Position numbers and translations under genes: made by a program. The notes beneath the pieces are model-generated. The model was not told where the DNA came from, did not search any database, and saw only the letters and a program-made list of their open reading frames with translations. Below are positions 5,001-21,655 of a stretch of DNA of 45,533 bases, in pieces (position 1 is the first letter of the stretch; each line of letters begins with the position of its first letter). Source of the stretch: an uncultured Gemmatimonadota bacterium (GTDB taxonomy: Bacteria; Gemmatimonadota; Gemmatimonadetes; Palauibacterales; Palauibacteraceae); the NCBI GenBank assembly GCA_964392705.1, contig CAYMQZ010000004.1, forward strand, positions 1-45,533, written 5' to 3'.

Positions 5001-5467
5001 TCGAGGGCGGCGCGCTGCGGAACGCCCTCGCCGAGGCGATCACCAACATCTACGACGCCCGCCGCGAGATCGACGTCGTCCTCCGCAAGGCGCGGGCGGC
5101 GGGCGAGGGGGAGGAGGCCGAGGGTCCCTACGCCGAGCTCACCCGGGCGGGCCGGGAGCTGAAGCGGGGGCTCACGGAGCTCGAGGAGCGGCTGTGGGTG
5201 CCGCCGGAGACGAAGGGAATCGTGGCCAGCGATCACCTCCCGTGGAGCAAGGTGCAGACCGCGATCCGCTTCCTGGGGTCCACGCGCGCGGCGCCGAGCG
5301 AGACGAACCTGGCCTACCTGGAGGTGGCGCGGGCGACGACGGACGCGGCGCTGGAGGAGGTGAACGCGCTGTTCGCCGGGGAGGTGGCCGCGTTCCGGGA
5401 GCGGGTCGAGGCGTCCGACCTCGTCCTCTTCCCGGCGTTCGAGGCGGTCGAGGTGGAGCTTCCGTAG
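2006..5467 (+). CDS. Secreted BNR/Asp-box repeat protein (sortilin/VPS10-like)
   Basis: About ten S/T-x-D-x-G-x-(T/S)-W/F Asp-box motifs (SRDGGRTWEH, TTDGGRTWER, THDGGDTWER, SDDGGRSF, SEDGGESFE, SDDRGENW, SPDRGESWE, TRDGGESWT, TDDFGASWT, SLDGGGSWM). A signal-peptide-like segment VLVAGALTALLLFPVAAEG follows ATG 2006/2024. The start is uncertain (TTG 1889, ATG 2006 or ATG 2024). Confidence 0.8.
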   Translation: MRTEWSMRPSAFQVRSHGRIDVPRHPGRVLVAGALTALLLFPVAAEGQRQAAADALDPALLAGMEARQIGPAGMSGRIASIDAVASDPDIIYIGAATSGAWKSENRGLTWEPLFDEQPVHSIGAVAVFQPSPDVVWVGTGEGNTRNSVSVGNGVYRSRDGGRTWEHVGLEGTERIHKIVLHPTDSDVAYVAALGHLWGENPERGVYRTTDGGRTWERVLYVDERTGAADLAVDPTNPRKLFAAMWEHGRRPYFFESGGPGSGLYVTHDGGDTWERRTPEDGLPEGDLGRIGIGISRSNPEIVYALVEAESNVLLRSDDGGRSFRTVNRERNIAPRPFYYASIWIDPRNPNVVYNVHSLVTRSEDGGESFETLVPFNTAHPDHHAFWIHPEDPELLMTGNDGGFYLSDDRGENWDFSANLPFAQFYHIRVDRETPYHVYGGLQDNGSWKGPAEVWENGGIRNHHWEEIAFGDGFDAAPDPEDHMKGYGMSQEGFLVRWDLRTGERKSVRPPPPDPETTLRFNWNAGFAQDPFDPATIYYGSQFVHRSPDRGESWELISPDLTTDNPDWQIYPESGGLTPDVTGAENYTTIVAIEPSPIQEGVLWVGTDDGRLHVTRDGGESWTAVEGNVPGVPANTWIPHIHASAHAAGTAFAVFDDHRRDDWTPYVYRTDDFGASWTRLAGQGGGAGPRTAEAPDDGVWGYALSIVQDPVDPDLLFLGTEFGLYASLDGGGSWMRWEHGVPTASVMDLRVQPDEADLVLGTHGRSIYVLDDIRPLRGLDAARLAEPLHLFDIPDAVQYEVKQTGASRFPGQEEFRGENEPYGALITFSASRDDLPHPEEEVERARKEREREERRATETMEATEEEREPEVAGEATGAEAEAMGPSGPQEEPEAERGPRVKVEVADGSGEVVRTFERPVSLGVNRITWNLRRDPFERPDTGEEEEEFSFFGPSGAEVPPGTYTVTLTLGEAEASGSVEVLPDPRQDILAADRRRQYETILEGGALRNALAEAITNIYDARREIDVVLRKARAAGEGEEAEGPYAELTRAGRELKRGLTELEERLWVPPETKGIVASDHLPWSKVQTAIRFLGSTRAAPSETNLAYLEVARATTDAALEEVNALFAGEVAAFRERVEASDLVLFPAFEAVEVELP

Positions 5468-5476
5468 GGGGTCGTC

Positions 5477-5566
5477 ATGGAGGCATCGATGATCCGGACC
5501 CAGGTGCAGTTCACCGAAGAGCGGTTGGAGGCCCTGCTCGCGGCCGGCCGTCGCGATTTGACATGA
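5477..5566 (+). CDS. Possible 29-codon mini-ORF resembling the N-terminus of a ribbon-helix-helix (CopG-like) protein
   Basis: ATG 5477 to TGA 5564-5566 encodes MEASMIRTQVQFTEERLEALLAAGRRDLT. Its stop overlaps ATG 5563 of the downstream kinase (ATGA). It is too short to be a complete RHH domain and may be a remnant or non-coding. Confidence 0.2.
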   Translation: MEASMIRTQVQFTEERLEALLAAGRRDLT

Positions 5567-7242
5567 CGGAGCGGGCTTCCACGGTCCGTCGGCTCTTCAT
5601 CGAGCTGCACGGAGCGCCGCCCGCCCGCATCGAGTCCGTCTCCGCGGACGGATCAGCCCGCAGCTACTGGCGGCTGTGGGGCCCTGGCGGCGAGACCGTG
5701 ATCGGCGCCCACGGGCCCGAGCCGGAGGAGAACCGGGCGTTCCTCTCCTTCTCCCGGAGCTTCCGGAAGCTGGGGCTTCCCGTGCCGGAGATCCTGGCGG
5801 CCGACGAGGAGGAGGGGGTCTGGCTGGCCGAGGACCTGGGGGACCGCACGCTGTTCGACGTGCTGACGGAGGCGCGGGAAGGCCCCGCGGCCGACCCCGA
5901 CGAGGCGGGTGGCTTCCCGGCTTCCGTGGTGCCGCTGTACGAGCGGGTGCTCGAGTGGCTGCCCCGCTTCCAGGTGGAAGGAGGACGGGCGATCGACTTC
6001 GGCGTCGCGTACCCGCGGGAGGCGTTCGACCGCCAGTCCGTCCTCTGGGACCTGAACTATTTCAAGTACCATTTCCTGAAGCTGGCGCACGTGCCGTTCA
6101 GCGAGGCGCGGCTGGAGCGGGACTTCGGACGACTGACCCGGTTCCTCGCGAAGGCGCCCTCCGACTTCTTCCTCTACCGGGACTTCCAGTCGCGGAACGT
6201 GATGATCCGCGACGGCGAGCCCTGGTTCATCGACTACCAGGGCGGACGGAAGGGCGCGCTCCAGTACGACGTGGCCTCGCTGCTCTACGATGCCAAGGCC
6301 GACCTTCCGGCCGCGCTTCGCGCGCGGTTCCTGGAGGGCTACCTGGATGGCCTCGAGAATCACGTTCCCGTGGACCGGGAGGACTTCCGGGACCGCTACC
6401 CGGCTTTCGTGCTCGTGCGGCTGTTGCAGGCGATGGGCGCCTACGGCTACCGCGGGTTCTACGAGCGGAAGCCGCACTTCATGCAGAGCGTGCCGTACGC
6501 GGCGCGGGCGCTCGGCCGCATGGCGGAGGCCGGACTGCCTTTGCGAGCTCCCGAGCTCGAGGCCGTCCTCGGCCGGATCGCCGAGGCGTGGGCCGACCGG
6601 GATCCGGAGGCGTGGACGGAGTGGCCGGAGCTGGCCTGGGCTCCCAGGCCGGAGCGCATCGCCCGTTCCGATGATGTCGAGCGCGCCGCCCGTGCCGGCG
6701 GCGCGGACCGCCCCGGTCAGGCGACGGTCGAACCCTCGCGCCCGACGGCTGCCGCCTCGGCGGCGGCGGACGCCCAGCCTCCGACGGCCGGGAAAGCGCA
6801 GGAGCCGGCGCTCACGGTCCGGGTGGGCAGCTTCAGCTTCCGGCGTGGATATCCTCCGGATGAGACCAGGCATGGGGGGCCGGTCTTCGATTGCCGGGTC
6901 CTTCCGAACCCGGGCCGCCTGGAGGCCTACCGGGACTCCACGGGGCTCGAGGACGAGACGATCGCTTTCCTCGCGGCCCGGGAGGAGACCGGGCGCTTCT
7001 GGGAGCTGGTGCGCCCGTTGGCCGAAGCGCAGGTGCGGGAGTTCCTGGAGCGCGGCCACGCCGAGCTCACGATCCACTTCGGCTGCACGGGTGGCCAGCA
7101 CCGGTCCCCGTACTTCGCCGAGCGGCTCGCCCGTCATCTGCGGGAGGAGTTTCCGCGGATTCGCGTGGAGGTCTTGCACCGCGAGCGGGACGCCTGGCCG
7201 GGCGAGGCGTCGGGAGCCGACGCCACCCGGTCGGCGGGCTGA
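5563..7242 (+). CDS. amgK: AmgK-like anomeric amino-sugar kinase (APH fold) fused to a RapZ/YvcJ C-terminal domain
   Basis: 559 aa from ATG 5563. The kinase motifs YRDFQSRNVMI...FIDYQGG...YDVASLLYD resemble MurNAc/GlcNAc anomeric kinase. After a Pro/Ala-rich linker, the C-terminal ~130 aa (LTVRVGSFSFRRGYPPD...VFDCRVLPNPG...TIHFGCTGGQHRSPYFAERLA) aligns by eye with the E. coli RapZ C-terminal domain (SIFSFGFKHG...VFDVRFLPNPHW...AIGCTGGKHRSVYIAEQLA). Confidence 0.75.
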   Translation: MTERASTVRRLFIELHGAPPARIESVSADGSARSYWRLWGPGGETVIGAHGPEPEENRAFLSFSRSFRKLGLPVPEILAADEEEGVWLAEDLGDRTLFDVLTEAREGPAADPDEAGGFPASVVPLYERVLEWLPRFQVEGGRAIDFGVAYPREAFDRQSVLWDLNYFKYHFLKLAHVPFSEARLERDFGRLTRFLAKAPSDFFLYRDFQSRNVMIRDGEPWFIDYQGGRKGALQYDVASLLYDAKADLPAALRARFLEGYLDGLENHVPVDREDFRDRYPAFVLVRLLQAMGAYGYRGFYERKPHFMQSVPYAARALGRMAEAGLPLRAPELEAVLGRIAEAWADRDPEAWTEWPELAWAPRPERIARSDDVERAARAGGADRPGQATVEPSRPTAAASAAADAQPPTAGKAQEPALTVRVGSFSFRRGYPPDETRHGGPVFDCRVLPNPGRLEAYRDSTGLEDETIAFLAAREETGRFWELVRPLAEAQVREFLERGHAELTIHFGCTGGQHRSPYFAERLARHLREEFPRIRVEVLHRERDAWPGEASGADATRSAG

Positions 7243-13243: not shown

Positions 13244-14521
13244 ATGACGCCACCCGAAGCGACGGCCCCGGCACCGGAGGCCCAGCTCCGGTCAACGGCC
13301 GAGATCACCCGCCGTCCGGATGTCGAGCCCGAGCCGAGCGCGAAGCGACTGCGCGAGGGCCCGCTCAAGACGATCCACGTCTTCTGGATGGCGGGGATGA
13401 GCTGCGACGGCTGCACGATCTCCGCCGCCGGCGCTACCAACCCGAGCGTCGAAGACCTCCTGAACGGCAACCTCCCCGGCCTCCCGAAGGTGATCCTCCA
13501 CCACCCGGTGCTCTCCGTCGAAGCGGGGGAGGAGTTCATCCACAACTTCCAGCTCGCCTGGGAAGGCAAGCTGGCCGCCCCGTACGTGTGCATCTACGAG
13601 GGGTCGATCGCCGACGAGCGGATCGCCGGCCGATCCGGCGGCTACTGGTCCGGCATGGGCGTGGAGCGGGGCGAGAACGGTCCCCAGCCCGTCCCGACGG
13701 CGAAGTGGCTGGAGCGCCTGGCGCCCGGAGCGGCGGCCGTGATCGCGATCGGGACCTGCGCCACCTGGGGCGGGATTCCCGCGGCCGCCGGCAACCCCAC
13801 GGGCGCGATGAGCGTGATGGACTTCCTGGGGGAGGATTTCCGAAGCGCGTACGGGCTCCCGGTGGTGAACATCCCGGGCTGCGCCCCGCAGGGCGACAAC
13901 TTCACGGAGACCGTGGCCGCCGTGCTCCTCTTCCTCCAGGGGATCGCCCCCATCCCCGACTTCGACGAGCTGGGCCGGCCCGCCTGGCTGTTCGGCGAGA
14001 CGGTGCACCGGGGCTGCACGCGCGCGGGGTGGTACGAGGAGGGCACCTTCGCCGAGGAGTACGGCGACAAGGAGTGCCTGGTCGACGTGGGCTGCTGGGG
14101 GCCGGTCGTCAACTGCAACATCGTGAAGCGCGGGGCGATCAACCACATGGGGGGCTGCATGGAGGCCGGCGGCGTGTGCATCGGCTGCACCATGCCCGGC
14201 TTCCCCGACAAGTTCAGCCCCTTCTACAAGACGCCGCCGGGCTCGGTGTTTTCGACCGCCGGCTCGCGGACCCTGGGCGGCGTCGTGCGCCGGCTGCGGC
14301 GCATGTCCATCCGGGAGCTCGACCGGGAGTCCCGGTGGGACGTCGCGGGCGACGTGCCCAGCGGCTGGGGGCACCTCCAGGAGCCGGGCATCTTCCGCAA
14401 GGCGATGCAGTTCTTCTACGAGATCTGGCAGTTCTGGGGCGCGGAGAAGCCGGGACGGGACGACGACGAGGGCTGGCCGCTCTCCCGTCCGGGCTCGAAG
14501 GACGACTACCCCGTCGGCTAG
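13244..14521 (+). CDS. [NiFe]-hydrogenase small subunit, Tat-less (uptake type, group 1h/1l-like)
   Basis: MAGMSCDGCTIS, GTCATWGGIP, PGCAPQGDNF, CTRAGW, CLVDVGCWGPVVNCN and GGCMEAGGVCIGCTMPGFPD are FeS ligand patterns of hydrogenase small subunits. There is no RRxFxK twin-arginine signal and no C-terminal hydrophobic anchor. Confidence 0.92.
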   Translation: MTPPEATAPAPEAQLRSTAEITRRPDVEPEPSAKRLREGPLKTIHVFWMAGMSCDGCTISAAGATNPSVEDLLNGNLPGLPKVILHHPVLSVEAGEEFIHNFQLAWEGKLAAPYVCIYEGSIADERIAGRSGGYWSGMGVERGENGPQPVPTAKWLERLAPGAAAVIAIGTCATWGGIPAAAGNPTGAMSVMDFLGEDFRSAYGLPVVNIPGCAPQGDNFTETVAAVLLFLQGIAPIPDFDELGRPAWLFGETVHRGCTRAGWYEEGTFAEEYGDKECLVDVGCWGPVVNCNIVKRGAINHMGGCMEAGGVCIGCTMPGFPDKFSPFYKTPPGSVFSTAGSRTLGGVVRRLRRMSIRELDRESRWDVAGDVPSGWGHLQEPGIFRKAMQFFYEIWQFWGAEKPGRDDDEGWPLSRPGSKDDYPVG

Positions 14522-14626: not shown

Positions 14627-14944
14627 ATGCAGATGACCATGACCGTGCCCGAGCTCTTCCTGGACTGGGGCTTCTGGTACCTGGTCGGGACCGCCGTGGT
14701 GCTGATCGCGGCAGCGCTCCTGATCACGATCCTGCTCGTGGCGCGCTCCATCGCGGGGCACGCCGAGCGCGCCCTCGCGGCCGGTGCCCGGATCGAGGAG
14801 AACACGCGCGCCATCTGGGCCCTGCAGGACGCCCTGGAAGGGATGCGGACGATTCACGAGCGCGCCGGCGCGGTGGAGGAGAAGGCCGCGTTCCTGGCGG
14901 ACGCGGTCCACGGCGAGGGCGCGGCGCCGCGGACCGAGGCATGA
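14627..14944 (+). CDS. Small single-pass membrane protein 1 of 5 between the hydrogenase subunit genes
   Basis: 105 aa. Purine-rich SD (GGAAGGGAAGGA) upstream. One hydrophobic helix (FWYLVGTAVVLIAAALLITILLV) followed by an Ala/Glu/Arg-rich helical tail that contains RIEENTRAI. Confidence 0.7.
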   Translation: MQMTMTVPELFLDWGFWYLVGTAVVLIAAALLITILLVARSIAGHAERALAAGARIEENTRAIWALQDALEGMRTIHERAGAVEEKAAFLADAVHGEGAAPRTEA

Positions 14945-14966
14945 CCGCCGGAAGCGGGAGGCACGC

Positions 14967-15278
14967 GTGGAAGCCGTGAACGCGCCGATGTGGTGGATCA
15001 CGCTCGGCGTGGGGCTGGTGATCGTGCTCGTCGTGGCCCTGCTCCTTCAGCTCATCGTGAACACGGCCCGCCGGATCCGCGGGACCCTGGAAGCGATCTG
15101 GGTGGCGGGCCCGATGATCGCGAACAACACCGCTCACGTCGACCTCGTGCGGCGGATCAACCTGGTGGCTGGCCACATCCTGGAGGTGGCCGGCCGGATC
15201 GTCGGCCACACCGAGCGCATCCAGGAGCATGCGGACGGCTGCGCCGGGTGTCCCCACTGCGTGGTCGGATGGTCCTGA
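14967..15278 (+). CDS. Small single-pass membrane protein 2 of 5; C-terminal CxxCxxC
   Basis: About 103 aa from GTG 14967, preceded by GGGAGG 6 nt upstream (alternative starts GTG 14976, ATG 14988). Helix MWWITLGVGLVIVLVVALLLQLIV, a tail containing MIANNTAHV, and a C-terminus HADGCAGCPHCVVGWS. Confidence 0.65.
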   Translation: MEAVNAPMWWITLGVGLVIVLVVALLLQLIVNTARRIRGTLEAIWVAGPMIANNTAHVDLVRRINLVAGHILEVAGRIVGHTERIQEHADGCAGCPHCVVGWS

Positions 15279-15356
15279 TGCGACGCCCCATCCGGCACCG
15301 GAGGTCCTGATGCGAGGCGCAGCGCCGAATCGGAGACGCGGGAAGGAAGCCTGGCC

Positions 15357-15650
15357 ATGCTGTTGCTGACGGTCCTCACGATCGGCCTGGTCCTCCTGCT
15401 CGTGGGCGCGCTCGTCGTCTACCTGCTCAAGATCATCGCCGAGCTGGAGGCGATCGGAGGCGCGCCGACCAGCCTCCTGGCCCACGTGCGCTGGGGGGTG
15501 CGCGCGATCGAGGTGCAGACCCGGCCGATCGAGCCGGGCGTGGGCAGCCTGAACGCGGGTCTCGGCCAGATCGGCGAGGGACTGGCGGCGGTGCAGGCGA
15601 ACCTGCGGGGCCTGGCCCAGGCCCTGCGTAGACAGGGGTCCCGCTCATGA
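15357..15650 (+). CDS. Small single-pass membrane protein 3 of 5
   Basis: 97 aa. SD-like GGGAAGGAAG upstream. Helix LLLTVLTIGLVLLLVGALVVYLL and a helical tail containing AIEVQTRPI. Confidence 0.7.
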   Translation: MLLLTVLTIGLVLLLVGALVVYLLKIIAELEAIGGAPTSLLAHVRWGVRAIEVQTRPIEPGVGSLNAGLGQIGEGLAAVQANLRGLAQALRRQGSRS

Positions 15651-15955
15651 TCCAGGTGACGCTCCAGGCCCCGACCGCCGTGCTCGCGCTCTGGTGGGTC
15701 GCCCTCGGCCTGACGCTGCTCCTGATCGTGCCCGTCGCTCTCTACCTGCTGCACCGCACCTGGCGGGCGGCCCGGAACATCCAGCGCTACACGGCGGAGG
15801 CCCTGCGCGCCGGGGCGGGCATCGCGGCGCACACCGCGCAGCTCACGGCGCTGGACGACACGATCGCCGGGGCCGGCCCGCTGCTCGAGCGGACGGAGGC
15901 GATCCAGGGGCTCACGGCGGAGGTGAAAGAGATCCTCCTCGGGCGGGTGGGATAG
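15647..15955 (+). CDS. Small single-pass membrane protein 4 of 5
   Basis: 102 aa. ATGA overlap with the previous ORF. Helix VLALWWVALGLTLLLIVPVALYLL and a tail containing GIAAHTAQL. Confidence 0.7.
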   Translation: MIQVTLQAPTAVLALWWVALGLTLLLIVPVALYLLHRTWRAARNIQRYTAEALRAGAGIAAHTAQLTALDDTIAGAGPLLERTEAIQGLTAEVKEILLGRVG

Positions 15956-15963
15956 GAGACGGC

Positions 15964-16227
15964 ATGCTGCTCTACTGGCTCACGCTGGGCGTCGTGCTCG
16001 CGATCATCCTGGCCCTGGCGGGCTACCTGATCGCCATCGCCTGGGCGTTGGCGCGGGCGCGCGCCAACGTGGCCAGGCTGGCCGACGGCCTGGAGGCGAT
16101 CGCCGGCCACACCGATCCACTGGAAGAGAAGCTGGGGACGATCGGGAGCGCCGTCGGGCGCGTGGCCGACGGTTTCGGCGAGGTGGACCGCCACCTCGGC
16201 GAAGTGGCCTCGGCGCTGGGCGGATAG
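15964..16227 (+). CDS. Small single-pass membrane protein 5 of 5
   Basis: 87 aa from ATG 15964, with GGAGA 5 nt upstream. Helix LLYWLTLGVVLAIILALAGYLIAIAWAL and a tail containing AIAGHTDPL. Confidence 0.7.
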   Translation: MLLYWLTLGVVLAIILALAGYLIAIAWALARARANVARLADGLEAIAGHTDPLEEKLGTIGSAVGRVADGFGEVDRHLGEVASALGG

Positions 16228-16241
16228 AGGGGGAACGGATC

Positions 16242-18131
16242 ATGTGCTTCAAGAACCTGCCGATCGAGTTCGACGAGGCCGGAAGGGCCACGCTCAAGGA
16301 GGCGATCCCCGACCCGTACGCCCAGCGGGAGGTGCGGACGAAGGCGCCGCCGCAGCTGGACCGGGGGCAGATCGAGGAGCTCCTCGCCCGGAACGGCTAC
16401 CTGAAGAACGTGGACTTCGACCCGGTGACCCGGGTGGCGGGCGCGCTCGCCTTCCATTCGGTCTGCGACCTCGAGGAGCGGAAGGTGCTCGAGGCGCGCT
16501 CGATGGCCACGCTGTTCCGGGGCTACGAGATCATCGCCATGGGACGCGACCCCCGGGACGCGATCTTCATCACCAGCCGCGCCTGCGGCGTGTGCGGGGG
16601 CGTGCATTCGGTGACCTCGGCCATGGCCACGGAGATGGCGTTCGGCATCTGCCCGCCGCCATTGGGGATCGTCATCCGCAACCTGGCGCTGGCGCTCGAG
16701 TTCCTGTACGACCACCCGCTCCACCTCTTCCTGCTCGCCGGTCCGGACTACTCGGAGCAGATCGTCCGGCAGACGAACCCCGAGTACCTGGACGTCGCGA
16801 AGACGTGGGAGTGCCCGCACGCCGACCTCCACGGCTTCGCCACGATGCACGAGCTGATGGAGGAGATGAACCCGCTCACGGGGAACCTCTACCTCGAGGC
16901 GCTCCATATGACCCGGGTCGTCCGGGAGGCGTACGTGCTCATCTGCGGCAAGTACCCCCACCCGCAGACGATCGTCCCCGGCGGCATGAGCTCGACCGTG
17001 GACTTCACGGTCATGAACGAGATCTACCAGCGGGTGCAGCGCTTCTTCGACTACGGGAAGAAGGCGGTCGGCATCTGGGAGGACCTCACCGCCTTCTTCT
17101 ACGAGCGCGACCCCCGTTACCGCGAGGTCGGGTCCCGCTCACCCACCATGGTCGACACGGGCATCTTCGACCATCCCGAGGCGTACGACGCCAGGTACGA
17201 GAACGCGGGCGAATGGGGGAAGCGGCGCTGGGAGACCCCGGGCGCGATCGTCGACGGGGAGCTGGTGACGACGGACCTCCACCAGATCAACATGGGGACC
17301 GAAGAGTTCGTCGAGCATTCCTACTACGAAGAGTGGGCCTCGCACCGCCACCCGGAGGACCCGGTCGGGAACCCGCTCAGCAGGTTCCACCCCTGGAACG
17401 AGGAGACCCGCCCCAAGCCCGAGGGCCAGAGCTGGAAGGAGAAGTACTCCTGGGCGAAGTCGCCGCGTTGGGACCGCCGGGCCGCGGAGGCCGGCTGCTA
17501 TGCGAGGCTGTGGAACTCCGCCGCCGCCCGGCAGATGCCCGAGTCGGACTACATGATCCCGACCGGCCGCTCCCTGCGCTTCATCGTGCCGCGCGGGAAG
17601 CTGCCCGAGACGGAGCTCGAATGGGAGATTCCCGAGGACTGGAACGCGTTCGAGCGCAACCTCGGGCGCGCGTACTGCATCCCCTACATGGCCCTGGTGG
17701 CGCAGGAGAACTGGGAGATCGGGATGGAGCTCATGAAGCGGGGAGAGCGGAAGGTCTCGACCCCGTTCGAGGTGCCCAGGAAGGGCCACCGGATCGGCGT
17801 CGGCTTCTGGGGCGCCGGTCGGGGCTGGCTCACGCACCACCTGGAGCTGGAGAACGGCGTGATCTCCAGCTACCAGATCCTCACGCCGTCGACCTGGAAC
17901 GCCTCGCCCCAGGACCCGTGGGGGAACCCCGGCCCCTACGAGGAGGCCGTCCTCAACACGCCGCTGCTGGAGAGCTTCGACGACCCGGATCGCTTCCGCG
18001 GCGTGGACATCCTGCGGACGATACGCAGCTTCGACCCCTGCATGCCGTGCACGACCCATACGCACGTCGAAGGAGCCGACCGCGTCCTGTCGACCGAGGT
18101 GAACACCTGCGCCTGCGGCGTCGAAGAGTAG
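16242..18131 (+). CDS. [NiFe]-hydrogenase large subunit
   Basis: 629 aa. N-terminal Ni-Fe ligand pair in TSRACGVCGGVHS and C-terminal pair in RSFDPCMPCTTHTH, followed by a ~22-aa C-terminal extension (the expected endopeptidase substrate). SD GAGGGGGAA upstream. Confidence 0.95.
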   Translation: MCFKNLPIEFDEAGRATLKEAIPDPYAQREVRTKAPPQLDRGQIEELLARNGYLKNVDFDPVTRVAGALAFHSVCDLEERKVLEARSMATLFRGYEIIAMGRDPRDAIFITSRACGVCGGVHSVTSAMATEMAFGICPPPLGIVIRNLALALEFLYDHPLHLFLLAGPDYSEQIVRQTNPEYLDVAKTWECPHADLHGFATMHELMEEMNPLTGNLYLEALHMTRVVREAYVLICGKYPHPQTIVPGGMSSTVDFTVMNEIYQRVQRFFDYGKKAVGIWEDLTAFFYERDPRYREVGSRSPTMVDTGIFDHPEAYDARYENAGEWGKRRWETPGAIVDGELVTTDLHQINMGTEEFVEHSYYEEWASHRHPEDPVGNPLSRFHPWNEETRPKPEGQSWKEKYSWAKSPRWDRRAAEAGCYARLWNSAAARQMPESDYMIPTGRSLRFIVPRGKLPETELEWEIPEDWNAFERNLGRAYCIPYMALVAQENWEIGMELMKRGERKVSTPFEVPRKGHRIGVGFWGAGRGWLTHHLELENGVISSYQILTPSTWNASPQDPWGNPGPYEEAVLNTPLLESFDDPDRFRGVDILRTIRSFDPCMPCTTHTHVEGADRVLSTEVNTCACGVEE

Positions 18132-18137
18132 GCTCGC

Positions 18138-18893
18138 ATGACCCAGGGCTCCGAGCCGCCCGAAGGGGACTCCACGGCCTCCGGCGACGAGCTGCGCGCC
18201 GCGGCCTCCGGCGACGAGCTGCGCGCCGCGGCCTCCACGCTGGTCGGGGGCGTGGGATATCACGATCTCCGGGACTTCTCGGTCGGGCCCCTGCTGGTCG
18301 AGCGGCTGCGGGCGGAGAGCTGGCCGGACGGCGTCGTGGTCGAGGACCTGAGCTACGACCCCGTGAAGGTCGTCCACCGCCTCGCCGGCCAGGATCCGCC
18401 CTTCCGTCGCCTGGTCGTGGTCTCGTCGGTGCGCCGCGGGCGGCGCGCCGGCACCGTGACCGCCTACCGCTGGGACCGCTCCCTGCCGAACCCCGCGGAG
18501 ATTCAGGACCGGGTCTCGGAGGCCGTGACCGGCGTGATCGGGCTCGACAACCTGCTGATCGTGCTCCGGGCGTTCGGAGAGGCTCCTCCCGAAGTCTACG
18601 TGGTCGAGATCGAGCCGGCCGTGGAGGCGATGGGCGAGGCGCTGAGCCCGCCGGTGGCGGAGGCGGCGGCGGAGGCCGCCCGCCTCGCGCGTCGGCTCGC
18701 CCTGCACGTGGGATCCGAGCCGGCCGTCCCGACGTCGGCCCTCGGGGCCGGAGGCACCATGAACGGGCACGGAGCGGGGCCGCGGGTCACGCCCTTCGAT
18801 CCCCTCTCGCTCGAAGCCGGGACAGGCGACCGTCGGCGCGGGAGCGATCGGGCCGGTAGGGGCGATGCGCCATCGACGGGAGGGGGTTCGTGA
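18138..18893 (+). CDS. Hydrogenase-endopeptidase-like protein with apparently substituted metal ligands and a low-complexity tail
   Basis: The core LVGGVGYHDLRDFSVGPLLVERL...RLVVVSSVRRG...VIGLDNLLIVLRAFG...VYVVEIEP resembles the HybD/HyaD fold. The DA box reads SS and no His is visible at the third ligand position (by-eye alignment). The N-terminus contains a duplicated SGDELRAAA. Confidence 0.5.
   Translation: MTQGSEPPEGDSTASGDELRAAASGDELRAAASTLVGGVGYHDLRDFSVGPLLVERLRAESWPDGVVVEDLSYDPVKVVHRLAGQDPPFRRLVVVSSVRRGRRAGTVTAYRWDRSLPNPAEIQDRVSEAVTGVIGLDNLLIVLRAFGEAPPEVYVVEIEPAVEAMGEALSPPVAEAAAEAARLARRLALHVGSEPAVPTSALGAGGTMNGHGAGPRVTPFDPLSLEAGTGDRRRGSDRAGRGDAPSTGGGS
18177..18230. repeat. Perfect 27-bp tandem duplication (2 copies plus 6 nt of a third)
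   Basis: GCCTCCGGCGACGAGCTGCGCGCCGCG occurs at 18177-18203 and again at 18204-18230, followed by GCCTCC. It is in frame and encodes ASGDELRAA twice. Confidence 0.95.
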
Positions 18894-19918
18894 AGCGCGA
18901 GGAGATCGACGCGCTGTCGGAGCGTCTGAACGGCCTGCTGGCCGAGCTGGAGGCGGGCGCCCCGCCCGAGGTTCTCGAGGCCGTCGTGGAGCTGGTGGAG
19001 GGGATCCAGCGCGTGCACGCGGAGGGCCTCCGGCGGGTGGCCGAGCTGCTCGCCGAGGACCGCGAGCGCTTCGGCCGGGCGCTCGACGACCCCGTGGTCT
19101 CGAACCTCTTCCTGCTCTACGACCTGGCGCTGGTCGATGAGCGGGGGCGGGCCGAGGCCGCCCTCGAGGCCGTGCGCCCGCTGGCCCGCTCCCACGGCGG
19201 CGAGATCGAGCTCGTGGACGTGGACGAGGGCGTCGTGACGGTCCGACTCCACGGCGCCTGCCACGGCTGCCCCTCCTCCACCGCGACGCTCCGGGGCGGG
19301 ATCGAGCGGGTCCTGGTCGAGAGGCTCCCGGGCTTCGTGCGCCTCGAGGTGGCCGGAGAGGACGGCTCGACCGACGCCCCGACCGGCTCCATCCGTCCAG
19401 TCGACGCCCCGGCGGACGCGGGATCCCCGGCCGGAGATGTCGGGAACCCGGTGGGGCCCGGAGCGCTCGAGGCCGGCGGACCGGGTTCCGCGACGGGTGA
19501 CCTGTCCGTCGTGCCGCGGGAGAATCTGGTCCGGCTGGAGAAGCGGCTCTCGGAGGGCCGTCGCCGGGCTTCGAGGTCGGGTACGGGCTCGGAGCCGGAC
19601 GGCGGGTCCGGGCCCCGGCGGGTCGACGTGACGGCCCTCGACGACCTTCCTGGACAGGACCTGTTCGGCACGCTGGTCGGGAACTTTCCCCTCCTCCTGG
19701 TGCCCCTGGGCGACGGCGTGGCCGCCTACCGGAACGTCTGTCCGGGCTCCGCGCTTCCCCTCCATCTGGGCGAGCTGGAGAGCGGGGCTGTCGTCTGTCC
19801 CTGGCACGGTTGCCGGTTCGACGGCCGGACGGGCGAGCGGCGGGAGGGAGCCGGTCCGCCGCTCGAGGCGCTGTCCGCCTCGATCGAGGCGGGCCGGGTG
19901 AAGGTCGACCTCCCGTGA
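18890..19918 (+). CDS. NifU-like domain / Rieske-like domain fusion protein (HhyE/HucE-like putative FeS protein)
   Basis: The central segment HGGEIELVDVDEGVVTVRLHGACHGCPSSTATLRGGIERVL is a NifU C-terminal-type CxxC domain. The C-terminus AAYRNVCPGSALPLHLGELESGAVVCPWHGCRFDGRTGE is Rieske-like. The GTG start overlaps the upstream stop. Confidence 0.7.
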   Translation: MKREEIDALSERLNGLLAELEAGAPPEVLEAVVELVEGIQRVHAEGLRRVAELLAEDRERFGRALDDPVVSNLFLLYDLALVDERGRAEAALEAVRPLARSHGGEIELVDVDEGVVTVRLHGACHGCPSSTATLRGGIERVLVERLPGFVRLEVAGEDGSTDAPTGSIRPVDAPADAGSPAGDVGNPVGPGALEAGGPGSATGDLSVVPRENLVRLEKRLSEGRRRASRSGTGSEPDGGSGPRRVDVTALDDLPGQDLFGTLVGNFPLLLVPLGDGVAAYRNVCPGSALPLHLGELESGAVVCPWHGCRFDGRTGERREGAGPPLEALSASIEAGRVKVDLP

Positions 19919-20433
19919 TCGCGTCCCGCCGCGTCCTGGTCGCCTGCATGGGCAACGTGCTCCGGAGCGACGACGGCTTCGGAGTGGCGGTGGCGAGGGA
20001 GCTGGCGGAGCGAACGCTCCCGCCCGAGGTGACGCTTATCGAGGTGGGCACAGGGGGGATCCACCTCGTGCAGGAGCTGCTCGACGGTTACGATGCGCTG
20101 GTGATCGTGGACGCGGTCGATCGCGAGGCGGAGCCGGGCGCGGTGTTCCTGCTGAAGCCCCGCGTACCGGACCTCGACCCCATGCCGGAGGAGGAGCGGA
20201 GCGCGCTGCTGGCCGACATGCACTACACCGTGCCTTCGCGGGCCCTGATCGTCGCCAAGGCGCTGGGAACGCTGCCCCCGCGGACCTGGATCCTGGGGTG
20301 CCAGCCGCTCGAGGGCCAAGCGCTGGGGCTCGAGCTGTCCGATGTGGTGCGGAAGGCCGTGCCCGTGGCCGTGGCCCGGCTCGAGCGGCTCTGGGGCGAG
20401 CTCGGCCTGACCGAGACCGTGGGACGCCCGTGA
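19915..20433 (+). CDS. [NiFe]-hydrogenase maturation endopeptidase (HyaD/HybD/HupD family)
   Basis: VLVACMGNVLRSDDGFGVAVA, ALVIVDAVD and LLADMHYTVP supply the three conserved acidic/acidic/His metal-ligand boxes. The GTG start overlaps the upstream TGA. Confidence 0.85.
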   Translation: MIASRRVLVACMGNVLRSDDGFGVAVARELAERTLPPEVTLIEVGTGGIHLVQELLDGYDALVIVDAVDREAEPGAVFLLKPRVPDLDPMPEEERSALLADMHYTVPSRALIVAKALGTLPPRTWILGCQPLEGQALGLELSDVVRKAVPVAVARLERLWGELGLTETVGRP

Positions 20434-20879
20434 GCGAGCGCGACGGGGAGACGCCCGTGAGCCAGCCCGAGGATCGGCGAGCGGCCGGTGGCGTCGAGCC
20501 TGGCGGGGACGGCGGCGCGGGGGCGGTCGAGAGGCTCCGGCGGCGCGACGAGATGCTCCAGGTGCTCTTCTGGCTCGAGGGGGAGGGGTTCTCCTCCGAC
20601 ATGACGGCGAGGGGGATCCGGCGTTTCCTGAACTGGCCCCCCGAGAGGATCGCCGCCGGGCTGCAGGACCTCGTGCGGTCGGGCTTCGCGGTGGCCGACG
20701 AGGAGGAGGGCCGCTATCGGCTCACGCGCCAGGGGCGCCACGAGGGCGGACGCCGCTTCCTGGAGGAGTTCGCGCCGATCCTTTCGAGAGACACGCATCA
20801 CGGGAGCGAGTGCCAGGACCCCGACTGCGAGTGCCACACCTCGCCCTTGGGGGCGGCGGCCTGCCGGGCGAACGCATGA
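20430..20879 (+). CDS. Hypothetical winged-helix-like protein with a C-terminal Cys/His cluster
   Basis: GTG 20430 overlaps the upstream stop (alternative ATG 20553). LQVLFWLEGEGF...IAAGLQDLVRSGFAVADEEEGRYRLTRQG looks like a winged helix. The C-terminus is THHGSECQDPDCECHTSP. Its stop overlaps the ATG of the CooC-like gene. Confidence 0.55.
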   Translation: MSERDGETPVSQPEDRRAAGGVEPGGDGGAGAVERLRRRDEMLQVLFWLEGEGFSSDMTARGIRRFLNWPPERIAAGLQDLVRSGFAVADEEEGRYRLTRQGRHEGGRRFLEEFAPILSRDTHHGSECQDPDCECHTSPLGAAACRANA

Positions 20880-21655
20880 AGATCGCTATCGGAGGCAAGG
20901 GAGGCACGGGAAAGACGACCGTGGCCGGCACCCTGGCCCGGGCCCTGGGCCAGGCCGGTCGCGACGTGATCGCCTTCGACGGCGACTCCAACCCGAACCT
21001 CGCGGCGATCGTCGGCTTCCCTCCCGAGGGGACATCGGAGATTTCCGAGCTTCCGCGTGACCTGTTCGAGATCGTGGAGGAGAACGGCGAGCGGCGCCGC
21101 GTGCTCACCATGCCGCCGTCCAAAGTGGTGGACCGCTTCGGGACGGTCGGACCGGACGGGGTCCGCCTGCTGGTGGGGGGGCGCGTCGGCCATGCGGGCG
21201 CGGGGTGAATGTGCCGAGCCCACGCCACGGTCCGTGGCCTCATCGGCGAGTTGGTCGGAGCGGAGCTCGAGGGACGTGACGTCGTCCTCGACATGGAGGC
21301 GGGGCTCGAGCACATGAGCCGCGGCACGCCGCGGCACGTGGACACCCTGCTCGCCGTCGTCGAGCCGTACTTCCGGTCGCTCGAGGCGGGACGGCGGGTC
21401 GTGGAGCTGGCCCGCGAGCTGGACGTTCCCGCCGTCTACGCCGTGGCGAACAAGGTGCGGAGGGACGACGACGCGGCCGCGATCCGGGAGTTCTGCGACC
21501 GCCACGAGCTGCCGATCCTGGTCTCGATCCCCTTCGACGAGTCGATGATCGACGCGGAGCGCGAAGGCCAGGCCCCGATCGACCACGACCCGGCCTCGCC
21601 GGCCGTCTCCGAGATCCGCAGGCTGGCCGGGGCGCTCGTGGCGGACGGGGGATAA
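20876..21655 (+). CDS. CooC-type (MinD/Mrp-class) Ni-insertion ATPase interrupted by an in-frame TGA at 21206-21208 (candidate Sec codon, or pseudogene/split gene)
   Basis: P-loop MKIAIGGKGGTGKTT. Track ORFs 20810-21208 and 21209-21655 are in the same frame and are separated only by the TGA. The joined sequence GRVGHAGAG-[TGA]-MCRAHATVRGLIGEL...VVLDMEAGLEHMSRGT...LLAVVEP aligns with CooC GTVNHAGSG-C-VCPEHALVRTLL...DMEAGIEHFGRGT. Confidence 0.7.
21218..21247 (+). promoter_or_regulatory. SECIS-like stem-loop downstream of the in-frame UGA
   Basis: The apical stem GCCACG (21224-21229) pairs with CGTGGC (21233-21238) around loop GUC (or a 5-bp stem with loop GGUCC). The lower stem GCC (21218-21220) pairs with GGC (21245-21247) across an internal loop. 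The apical stem begins 15 nt after the UGA. Confidence 0.35.

Follow-up and report, generated by a model that had tools for sequence, protein, structure and literature searches.

The window analyzed here, a stretch of 45,533 nucleotides (nt) with a G+C content of 73% on contig CAYMQZ010000004.1 of an uncultured Gemmatimonadota bacterium, holds the genes for the small and the large subunit of a [NiFe]-hydrogenase, and the gap between them, at positions 14627-16227, is filled by five plus-strand open reading frames (ORFs) of 87-105 amino acids (aa). This arrangement raises the question of what the five short proteins are, whether they go back to a single gene and what they contribute to the hydrogenase. 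Published descriptions distinguish group 1l hydrogenases by five short transmembrane (TM) ORFs that separate hylS from hylL (bioRxiv 10.1101/2020.08.06.239558; PMC9561532); in these clusters HylL is followed by a Rieske-type HylE and by HupD (Ortiz et al., bioRxiv 10.1101/2020.08.06.239558; PMC9561532). In the window we find five single-TM ORFs between the subunit genes and a Rieske-type HylE and HupD downstream of HylL, and because this succession of HylS, five TM ORFs, HylL, NifU-Rieske protein and protease is characteristic of group 1l, the ORFs are those of HylTM1-5, the single-pass membrane subunits by which such clusters are defined. The array is an orthologous HylTM array in a Gemmatimonadota-like genome, identified by gene layout.

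The proteins have been known since 2020/21, when they received the names HylTM1-5 (TM1 to TM5 in the following; bioRxiv 10.1101/2020.08.06.239558), and what we add is incremental: a paralogy in two subfamilies, A (TM1, TM2 and TM4) and B (TM3 and TM5), an extended motif at a predicted hinge, a His-Cys3 tail in TM2, and variant arrays of three, four or five genes. Paralogy, duplication or a shared motif are not mentioned in the main texts, supplements aside, of the papers that name HylTM. As set out below, the five HylTM proteins are paralogues that fall into these two subfamilies and most likely derive from one gene for a TM helix with a helical tail.

Gene order and the shared motif

A scan with the large subunit through one genome per species returned more than 580 relatives, of which the best 80 were kept; the closest locus among these, with an 82% identical HylL, belongs to an uncultured Gemmatimonadaceae metagenome-assembled genome (MAG). 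In every source with both subunits and a gap of 1.4-2.2 kb the TM ORFs are about 300 nt apart, and exactly five of them occupy the gap in 50 sources, the window included. The orthologue comparison comprises the window and 49 related loci from Gemmatimonadota, Acidobacteriota, Methylomirabilota, Chloroflexota, Armatimonadota, Planctomycetota, Verrucomicrobiota, Actinomycetota and Proteobacteria, and counts per position are given out of these 50. With the ORFs assigned by family hidden Markov models (HMMs), the order 1-2-3-4-5 was found in 58/58 complete arrays from at least eight phyla. Partial arrays at contig ends agree with this order, and the canonical array is also present in a cultured host, Halovulum marinum (L094).

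Each of the five ORFs has a single 19-residue window near its N-terminus with a mean Kyte-Doolittle hydropathy of 2.5-3.1, followed by Arg/Lys residues and then by an Ala/Gly/Glu/Arg-rich helical tail, which bears out the architecture of TM helix plus tail described in the initial annotation of this DNA. The five pentapeptides quoted there are likewise present as written. All conform to the pattern I-x-x-[N/H/Q]-T, with the Thr located 19-30 residues past the first basic residue after the TM helix. When the residues of each tail were shuffled 5000 times, I..[NHQ]T arose by chance with a probability of 0.005-0.048 per protein. Because the pattern was defined after seeing the data, conservation is a better test than shuffling, and a search of the equivalent ORFs in other loci found the pentapeptide conserved across at least eight phyla.

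The motif Thr is kept in 50/50 sequences each for TM1, TM2 and TM3, in 48/50 for TM4 and in 44/50 for TM5, and the residue at position -4 relative to it is aliphatic in 47-50/50 at every HylTM position. The residue at -1 is Asn in TM1, TM2 and TM4, Glu/Gln in TM3 and His/Asn in TM5. A further aliphatic residue at +3 extends the motif to [IV]-x-x-[NHEQ]-T-x-x-[ILV]; it is followed by Leu at +6 in TM1/2/4 and by a conserved aliphatic residue at +7 in TM3 (Val) and TM5 (Leu), and then by a second polar layer, T(+9)-N/I(+10) in TM1/2/4 and L/I(+10)-N(+11) in TM3/5. All five window proteins carry both the motif and the T-N or L-N pair 9-11 residues on. As about 11 residues correspond to three helical turns, the two polar pairs fall on one face of the helix. 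The orthologue consensus reads Ir.nT.pIW.L.tTN for TM1, GIAgNT..i.ALd.TI for TM4 and eav..hT.PLp.kLtTIN for TM5. The Thr is invariant in 63 A-type tails and 44 B-type proteins, G-x-R-A-I-E-x-x-T is invariant in 32 TM3 sequences, and in TM2 all 68 database homologues share the residues A-N-N-T, H88, C92, C95, P96 and C98.

Two subfamilies and their relationship

The all-versus-all comparison was carried out with hhalign on orthologue profiles of the tails, from which the TM helix had been cut off. It yielded E-values of 5e-14 for TM1 and TM4, 1e-11 for TM2 and TM4, 4e-9 for TM1 and TM2 and 5e-12 for TM3 and TM5, and the pairwise reversed-profile controls scored at most 23.8. Smith-Waterman comparison of the single window sequences gave z-scores of 8.2 (TM1-TM4), 8.5 (TM3-TM5), 4.9 (TM2-TM4) and 3.1 (TM1-TM2), and the family HMMs cross-match inside each subfamily at 20-56 bits. 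Since tail hhalign and Smith-Waterman agree, the five proteins are divided into the subfamilies A and B, arranged A-A-B-A-B, an assignment that we regard as firm.

Could the similarity among the five be merely compositional, a property of Ala/Gly/Glu/Arg-rich amphipathic helices, with the pentapeptide as a chance match? The tails are indeed of low complexity and helical, and the motif was defined post hoc. However, even without the TM helix the within-group E-values range from 4e-9 to 5e-14, with reversed profiles scoring at most 24 and shuffled ones at most 15, and the Thr and the aliphatic residue at -4 are near-invariant across at least eight phyla while the neighbouring residues vary. For the relationships within the groups a purely compositional similarity is rejected by the comparison of tail hhalign with its controls, and as an account of all five proteins we hold it to be extremely unlikely.

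The initial annotation had proposed a serial duplication of one ancestral gene. Within A and within B this stands; between A and B it is probable, but unproven. Merged into one profile each, A and B align over 58 columns with a score of 30.7, an E-value of 9e-6 and a probability of 83%, the motif being in register with a one-residue indel, and another hhalign calculation gave an E-value of 1.4e-5. The controls remain well apart from this, with scores of 8.8-9.3 for reversed profiles and a mean of 8.0 (standard deviation 1.9, maximum 15) for 150 column shuffles. For the motif block alone the score is 16.2 versus a null maximum of 12.9. The signal was repeated on an independent set of variant arrays (21.6 versus 9.8 for the reversed profile), and when diverged variant arrays were added to the A and B profiles the score was 29.9, no gain.

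Several observations weigh against a common origin and would suit two unrelated families that have converged, their architecture and motif being alike from packing at one level of a bundle. The similarity of A and B emerges only when profile is compared with profile, at an E-value of about 1e-5 and an hhalign probability of only about 80%. It is not visible with single sequences (Smith-Waterman z at most 2.3), and HMM-against-sequence comparison likewise stays within the groups and shows no crossing between A and B, with the exception of one TM3/TM4 chimera. B also requires the one-residue indel relative to A inside the motif. Furthermore, coiled-coil profiles can reach E-values of 1e-11 against designed proteins by pattern alone: the E-value of the B profile is 2.5e-11 with designed coiled-coil barrels, for which homology is impossible, and in view of this match E-values for this class of sequences overstate significance. 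On the other hand, reversed profiles keep both the composition and the a/d spacing, yet they score 9-11 versus about 30 for the true alignment, which runs collinearly through 58-60 columns and keeps the motif in register, and the motif region alone beats 150/150 shuffles. The A and B genes are adjacent, equal in size and identical in architecture, and the chimera that joins the two types, in locus L015, is a natural in-frame one. We consider convergence unlikely and a common ancestry of A and B quite probable, the link seen between their profiles being a moderate one.

Because variant arrays sit elsewhere in the cluster, the HylTM array acts as a movable cassette. In the Acidobacteriota loci L021 (3437-4685), L055, L072, L090 and L100 the genes for HylS and HylL are direct neighbours, with an A-B-A-B array of four genes upstream; in the Actinomycetota loci L075 and L081-L097 the array consists of three or four genes (A, A, A, B) in divergent orientation, with the variant array of L082 at 5217-6509 on the minus strand; and in the Solirubrobacteraceae loci L086 (13998-15459), L087 and L098 a very diverged 1-2-3-4-5 cassette, some members of which have lost the motif Thr to other residues, is found 4 kb downstream of HylL. 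Every variant array holds both A and B types. This constant presence fits the duplication of an A/B pair. A first duplication of an ancestral gene for a TM helix and tail would have produced such a pair, and tandem duplications would have followed. The chimera in L015 (at about 5280-5616), part of a four-gene array, joins an N-terminal TM3 part, from the TM helix through ..KIRLGLRA, to a C-terminal TM4 part (VAPAAAIASNT...), and could reflect unequal recombination between paralogues or an artefact of MAG assembly. Group 1m clusters encode two small single-TM proteins of 82-92 aa without identifiable domain (PMC9561532), and these might be an A/B pair of the HylTM family.

In Pfam and NCBIfam no model matches the five proteins at threshold, the only matches being sub-threshold ones to coiled-coil/TM models, and a Pfam scan of 63 A-type and 39 B-type tails found nothing near a gathering score. 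The loose resemblance to DUF948/YtxH-type proteins suggested by the initial annotation found no support at the sensitivity of these scans. DUF948 (PF06103) was matched by none of the five proteins, by one of the 63 A-type tails at an E-value of 0.098 and by none of the 39 B-type tails; YtxH (PF12732) was never matched by any protein of these three sets. That HylTM proteins are members of either family, for which the loosely similar architecture of N-terminal TM helix and helical tail and the single A-type contact with DUF948 might be cited, is very unlikely: no match of the five proteins lies at or near a gathering score, and the 240 listed database homologues are all hypothetical proteins without domain annotation, not one carrying a precomputed Pfam domain. 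With the B profile, 1.84 billion representatives were searched exhaustively, which yielded at least 816 clusters at 50% identity (E-value at most 1e-3). The best 150 matches are all HylTM-like and 70-130 aa long, and the few long matches are assembly chimeras or a low-complexity repeat protein that offer no new domain context. Since neither Pfam nor NCBIfam has a model in spite of at least 816 clusters for B alone, the HylTM family is an annotation gap.

Predicted helix break and a proposed membrane stalk

AlphaFold2 (AF2) monomer models of TM2 and TM3 have a predicted local distance difference test score (pLDDT) of 81-83. In the TM2 model a helix comprising residues 6-51 is followed by a break at A52-A56 (ANNTA) and a second helix, 57-91. 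The TM3 model consists of helices 2-35 and 40-55, the latter ending at the motif Thr, a break at R56-P57 and a further helix, 58-96; TM3 also has an IGG-x-P loop after the TM helix. As the breaks in TM2 and TM3 fall at the motif, it marks a predicted helix break in both subfamilies. Conserved Pro residues, at +2 in TM1 and TM5 and at +5 in TM3, fit such a break. The B profile matches the de novo alpha-helical-barrel coiled coils sc-apCC-6, sc-apCC-4, sc-CC-5 and CC-Hept (E-values to 2.5e-11), and this match suggests a heptad pattern and packing of the barrel type.

A hetero-oligomeric bundle or stalk, as envisaged in the initial annotation, agrees with a published AlphaFold model of the Hymenobacter enzyme, in which HylTM1-5 are intertwined as a tube-like scaffold that holds a cytosolic HylSL dimer on the membrane (PMC13554262). 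We consider it likely that the HylTM proteins form a five-chain stalk of paralogues from subfamilies A and B, with the motif at a helix break, that tethers HylSL to the membrane. Each chain would have an N-out, C-in TM helix and a cytoplasmic tail, an orientation to which the basic residues after the helix, a HylS without a twin-arginine translocation (Tat) signal and the cytosolic, group 1h-like core all point. In the tail, a proximal helix would lead through a short break at the motif into a distal helix some 35-40 residues long. The five chains, produced from tightly spaced and partly overlapping genes, would then join in single copy each (1:1:1:1:1) into a parallel hetero-pentameric bundle or tube by which the HylSL core, itself cytosolic, is anchored to the membrane, and the break together with both polar layers would keep the different chains in the same register. 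By analogy with the HucM tube of Huc (PMC10017518), this bundle may also let quinone through to the distal iron-sulphur (FeS) cluster; a heme relay of the cytochrome b type is unlikely, since no TM helix has a conserved His.

Some points speak against this stalk in its simplest form. The spacing between TM helix and motif varies from chain to chain over the range of 19-30 residues, which complicates a strictly in-register bundle. The AF2 models are monomeric and have low predicted template modelling (pTM) scores of 0.34-0.42, and the break could vanish in the assembled complex. A Foldseek search of the PDB with the TM2 model gave 0 matches, and some members of the most diverged Actinomycetota arrays have other residues in place of the motif Thr (ERQL, GIARNL, GGKLPEHL).

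TM2 has a distinct C-terminus with the motif H-x3-C-x2-C-x2-C (HADGCAGCPHC), found in 38/50 orthologues and absent in 12/50, mostly Chloroflexota. It may be a metal or FeS site on the stalk. Its invariance in the 68 database homologues, its presence in those 38 orthologues and the position of the TM genes amid structural and maturation genes would also suit five proteins that are no passive stalk, but help in assembly or maturation, or that transfer electrons by way of a metal or FeS cluster, bound by the His-Cys3 motif of TM2, which relays them to quinone. However, the 12 orthologues without the Cys motif still keep all five genes, so that the motif cannot be the core function; in addition, the genes lie between the two structural subunits in a 1:1 order across phyla, and the published model of the complex shows HylTM as a scaffold (PMC13554262). 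We regard such a non-structural role as rather improbable and retain the tethering stalk. A more specific version of the stalk is doubtful: HylTM as one ancient family of paralogues that builds a hetero-pentameric alpha-helical A/B barrel, a heteromeric equivalent of the HucM tube. In it, a conserved ring of Asn, Thr and His at the helix break and a second layer of Asn about 16 Å away would do more than mark the register and would serve a quinone conduit beside the distal FeS cluster as its polar end or gate, and in many lineages a metal or FeS site would be contributed by the His-Cys3 tail of TM2.

Neighbouring genes and comparison with known systems

The features of the locus are listed in Table 1. 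The intergenic distances from TM1 through TM5 are 22, 78, -4 and 8 nt, and a purine-rich stretch resembling a Shine-Dalgarno sequence precedes each of the five ORFs; for TM2, where the GTG start is our choice, a Shine-Dalgarno-like GGGAGG is found 7 nt upstream. A HypF gene, recognized by Pfam, lies upstream of HylS. HylS has a long C-terminal extension, and inspection of its sequence revealed neither a twin-arginine signal nor the hydrophobic region that follows one. The closest solved structure for HylL is the group 1h enzyme 5AA5 (E-value 1e-144), from which it is clearly diverged, and no structure of a group 1l hydrogenase was found among the PDB sequences searched with the large subunit.

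Table 1. Features of the HylTM locus and its surroundings (positions in the window)
Feature	Position (nt)	Strand	Residues (aa)	Remarks
HylS, [NiFe]-hydrogenase small subunit	13244-14521	+		Pfam Oxidored_q6 E 4e-21, NiFe_hyd_SSU_C E 5e-22
HylTM1	14627-14944	+	105	ATG start; subfamily A; TM helix at about aa 20-38
HylTM1 motif IEENT	14792-14806		56-60	
HylTM2	14967-15278	+	103	GTG start; subfamily A
HylTM2 motif IANNT	15117-15131		51-55	
HylTM2 His-Cys3 motif	15228-15260			C-terminus
HylTM3	15357-15650	+	97	ATG start; subfamily B
HylTM3 motif IEVQT	15507-15521		51-55	
HylTM4	15647-15955	+	102	ATG start; subfamily A; ATGA overlap with TM3 stop
HylTM4 motif IAAHT	15821-15835		59-63	
HylTM5	15964-16227	+	87	ATG start; subfamily B
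HylTM5 motif IAGHT	16099-16113		46-50	
HylL, [NiFe]-hydrogenase large subunit	16242-18131	+		Pfam NiFeSe_Hases E 1e-75
ORF	18138-18893		251	conserved-looking; without Pfam match
HylE-like NifU + Rieske protein	18890-19918	+		Pfam NifU E 1e-22, Rieske E 1e-8
HupD/HycI-type maturation endopeptidase	19810-20433	+		Pfam HycI E 1e-18
ORF	20298-20879		193	conserved-looking; without Pfam match
CooC/CbiA-like P-loop NTPase	20876-21655	+		downstream of hydrogenase

A separate observation concerns the gene for a CooC/CbiA-like P-loop nucleoside triphosphatase (NTPase) downstream of the hydrogenase. It contains an in-frame TGA (21206-21208) at the first Cys of a G-C-x-C-x-x-H metal-binding motif, and across several phyla 25 orthologous loci likewise have TGA at this codon, and 15-18 others have TGC or TGT, which encode Cys. 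Beginning 16 nt after the UGA, a hairpin of 5 bp with a G-U-containing loop is found at 21224-21238. In the TGA loci it is 88.8% paired with 10 compensatory cells, a result reached by 0/500 shuffles, and in the Cys loci pairing is only 61%, without any excess. Note that RNA folding of the whole region after the UGA gave results no better than those for shuffles; the short hairpin is evident only through comparison across loci. The window contains no tRNA gene. The protein is a probable selenocysteine-containing Ni-insertion NTPase, as suggested by these codon and hairpin patterns; a CooC-like selenoprotein was not found described in a literature search.

Group 1l enzymes are reported as the dominant oxidisers of atmospheric H2 in Antarctic and other desert soils. 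For their HylTM proteins, the duplicated subfamilies, the near-invariant motif and the mobility of the cassette can guide the choice of residues to mutate and of A/B combinations to co-express.

The system in the window resembles published group 1l, with no essential difference seen, in the five TM ORFs between hylS and hylL, in HylE and HupD, and probably in a cytosolic enzyme related to group 1h. In group 1l the large subunit is a group 1 enzyme that is related to group 1h and forms a clade of its own. With the de novo barrels CC-Type2, CC-Hept, sc-CC-5 and sc-apCC-6 the distal helix of B has in common heptads in which small residues flank a Leu/Ile core, a pattern typical of bundles in which five or more helices enclose a lumen; the barrels cannot be homologues, and the match is one of pattern and composition only. 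In group 1 uptake hydrogenases, cytochrome b anchors of the HyaC/HoxZ type are membrane subunits that are encoded together with the structural genes and provide the link to the quinone pool. These anchors are single polytopic proteins with heme-ligating His residues and serve periplasmic, Tat-exported enzymes, whereas a conserved His is lacking from the HylTM helices and a Tat signal from HylS. A further parallel is HucM from Mycobacterium smegmatis Huc, a group 2a enzyme, where the connection between a cytosolic, oxygen-insensitive high-affinity hydrogenase and the membrane is made by a helical coiled-coil tube (PMC10017518). In a search of all PDB chains at E-values up to 10, Huc entries included, no Huc chain was matched by the A or the B profile. 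The relation of HylTM to HucM is one of analogy and not of membership: HucM is a single protein that forms a homotetramer via its C-terminal region and is without an array of N-terminal TM helices, while HylTM consists of five different chains.

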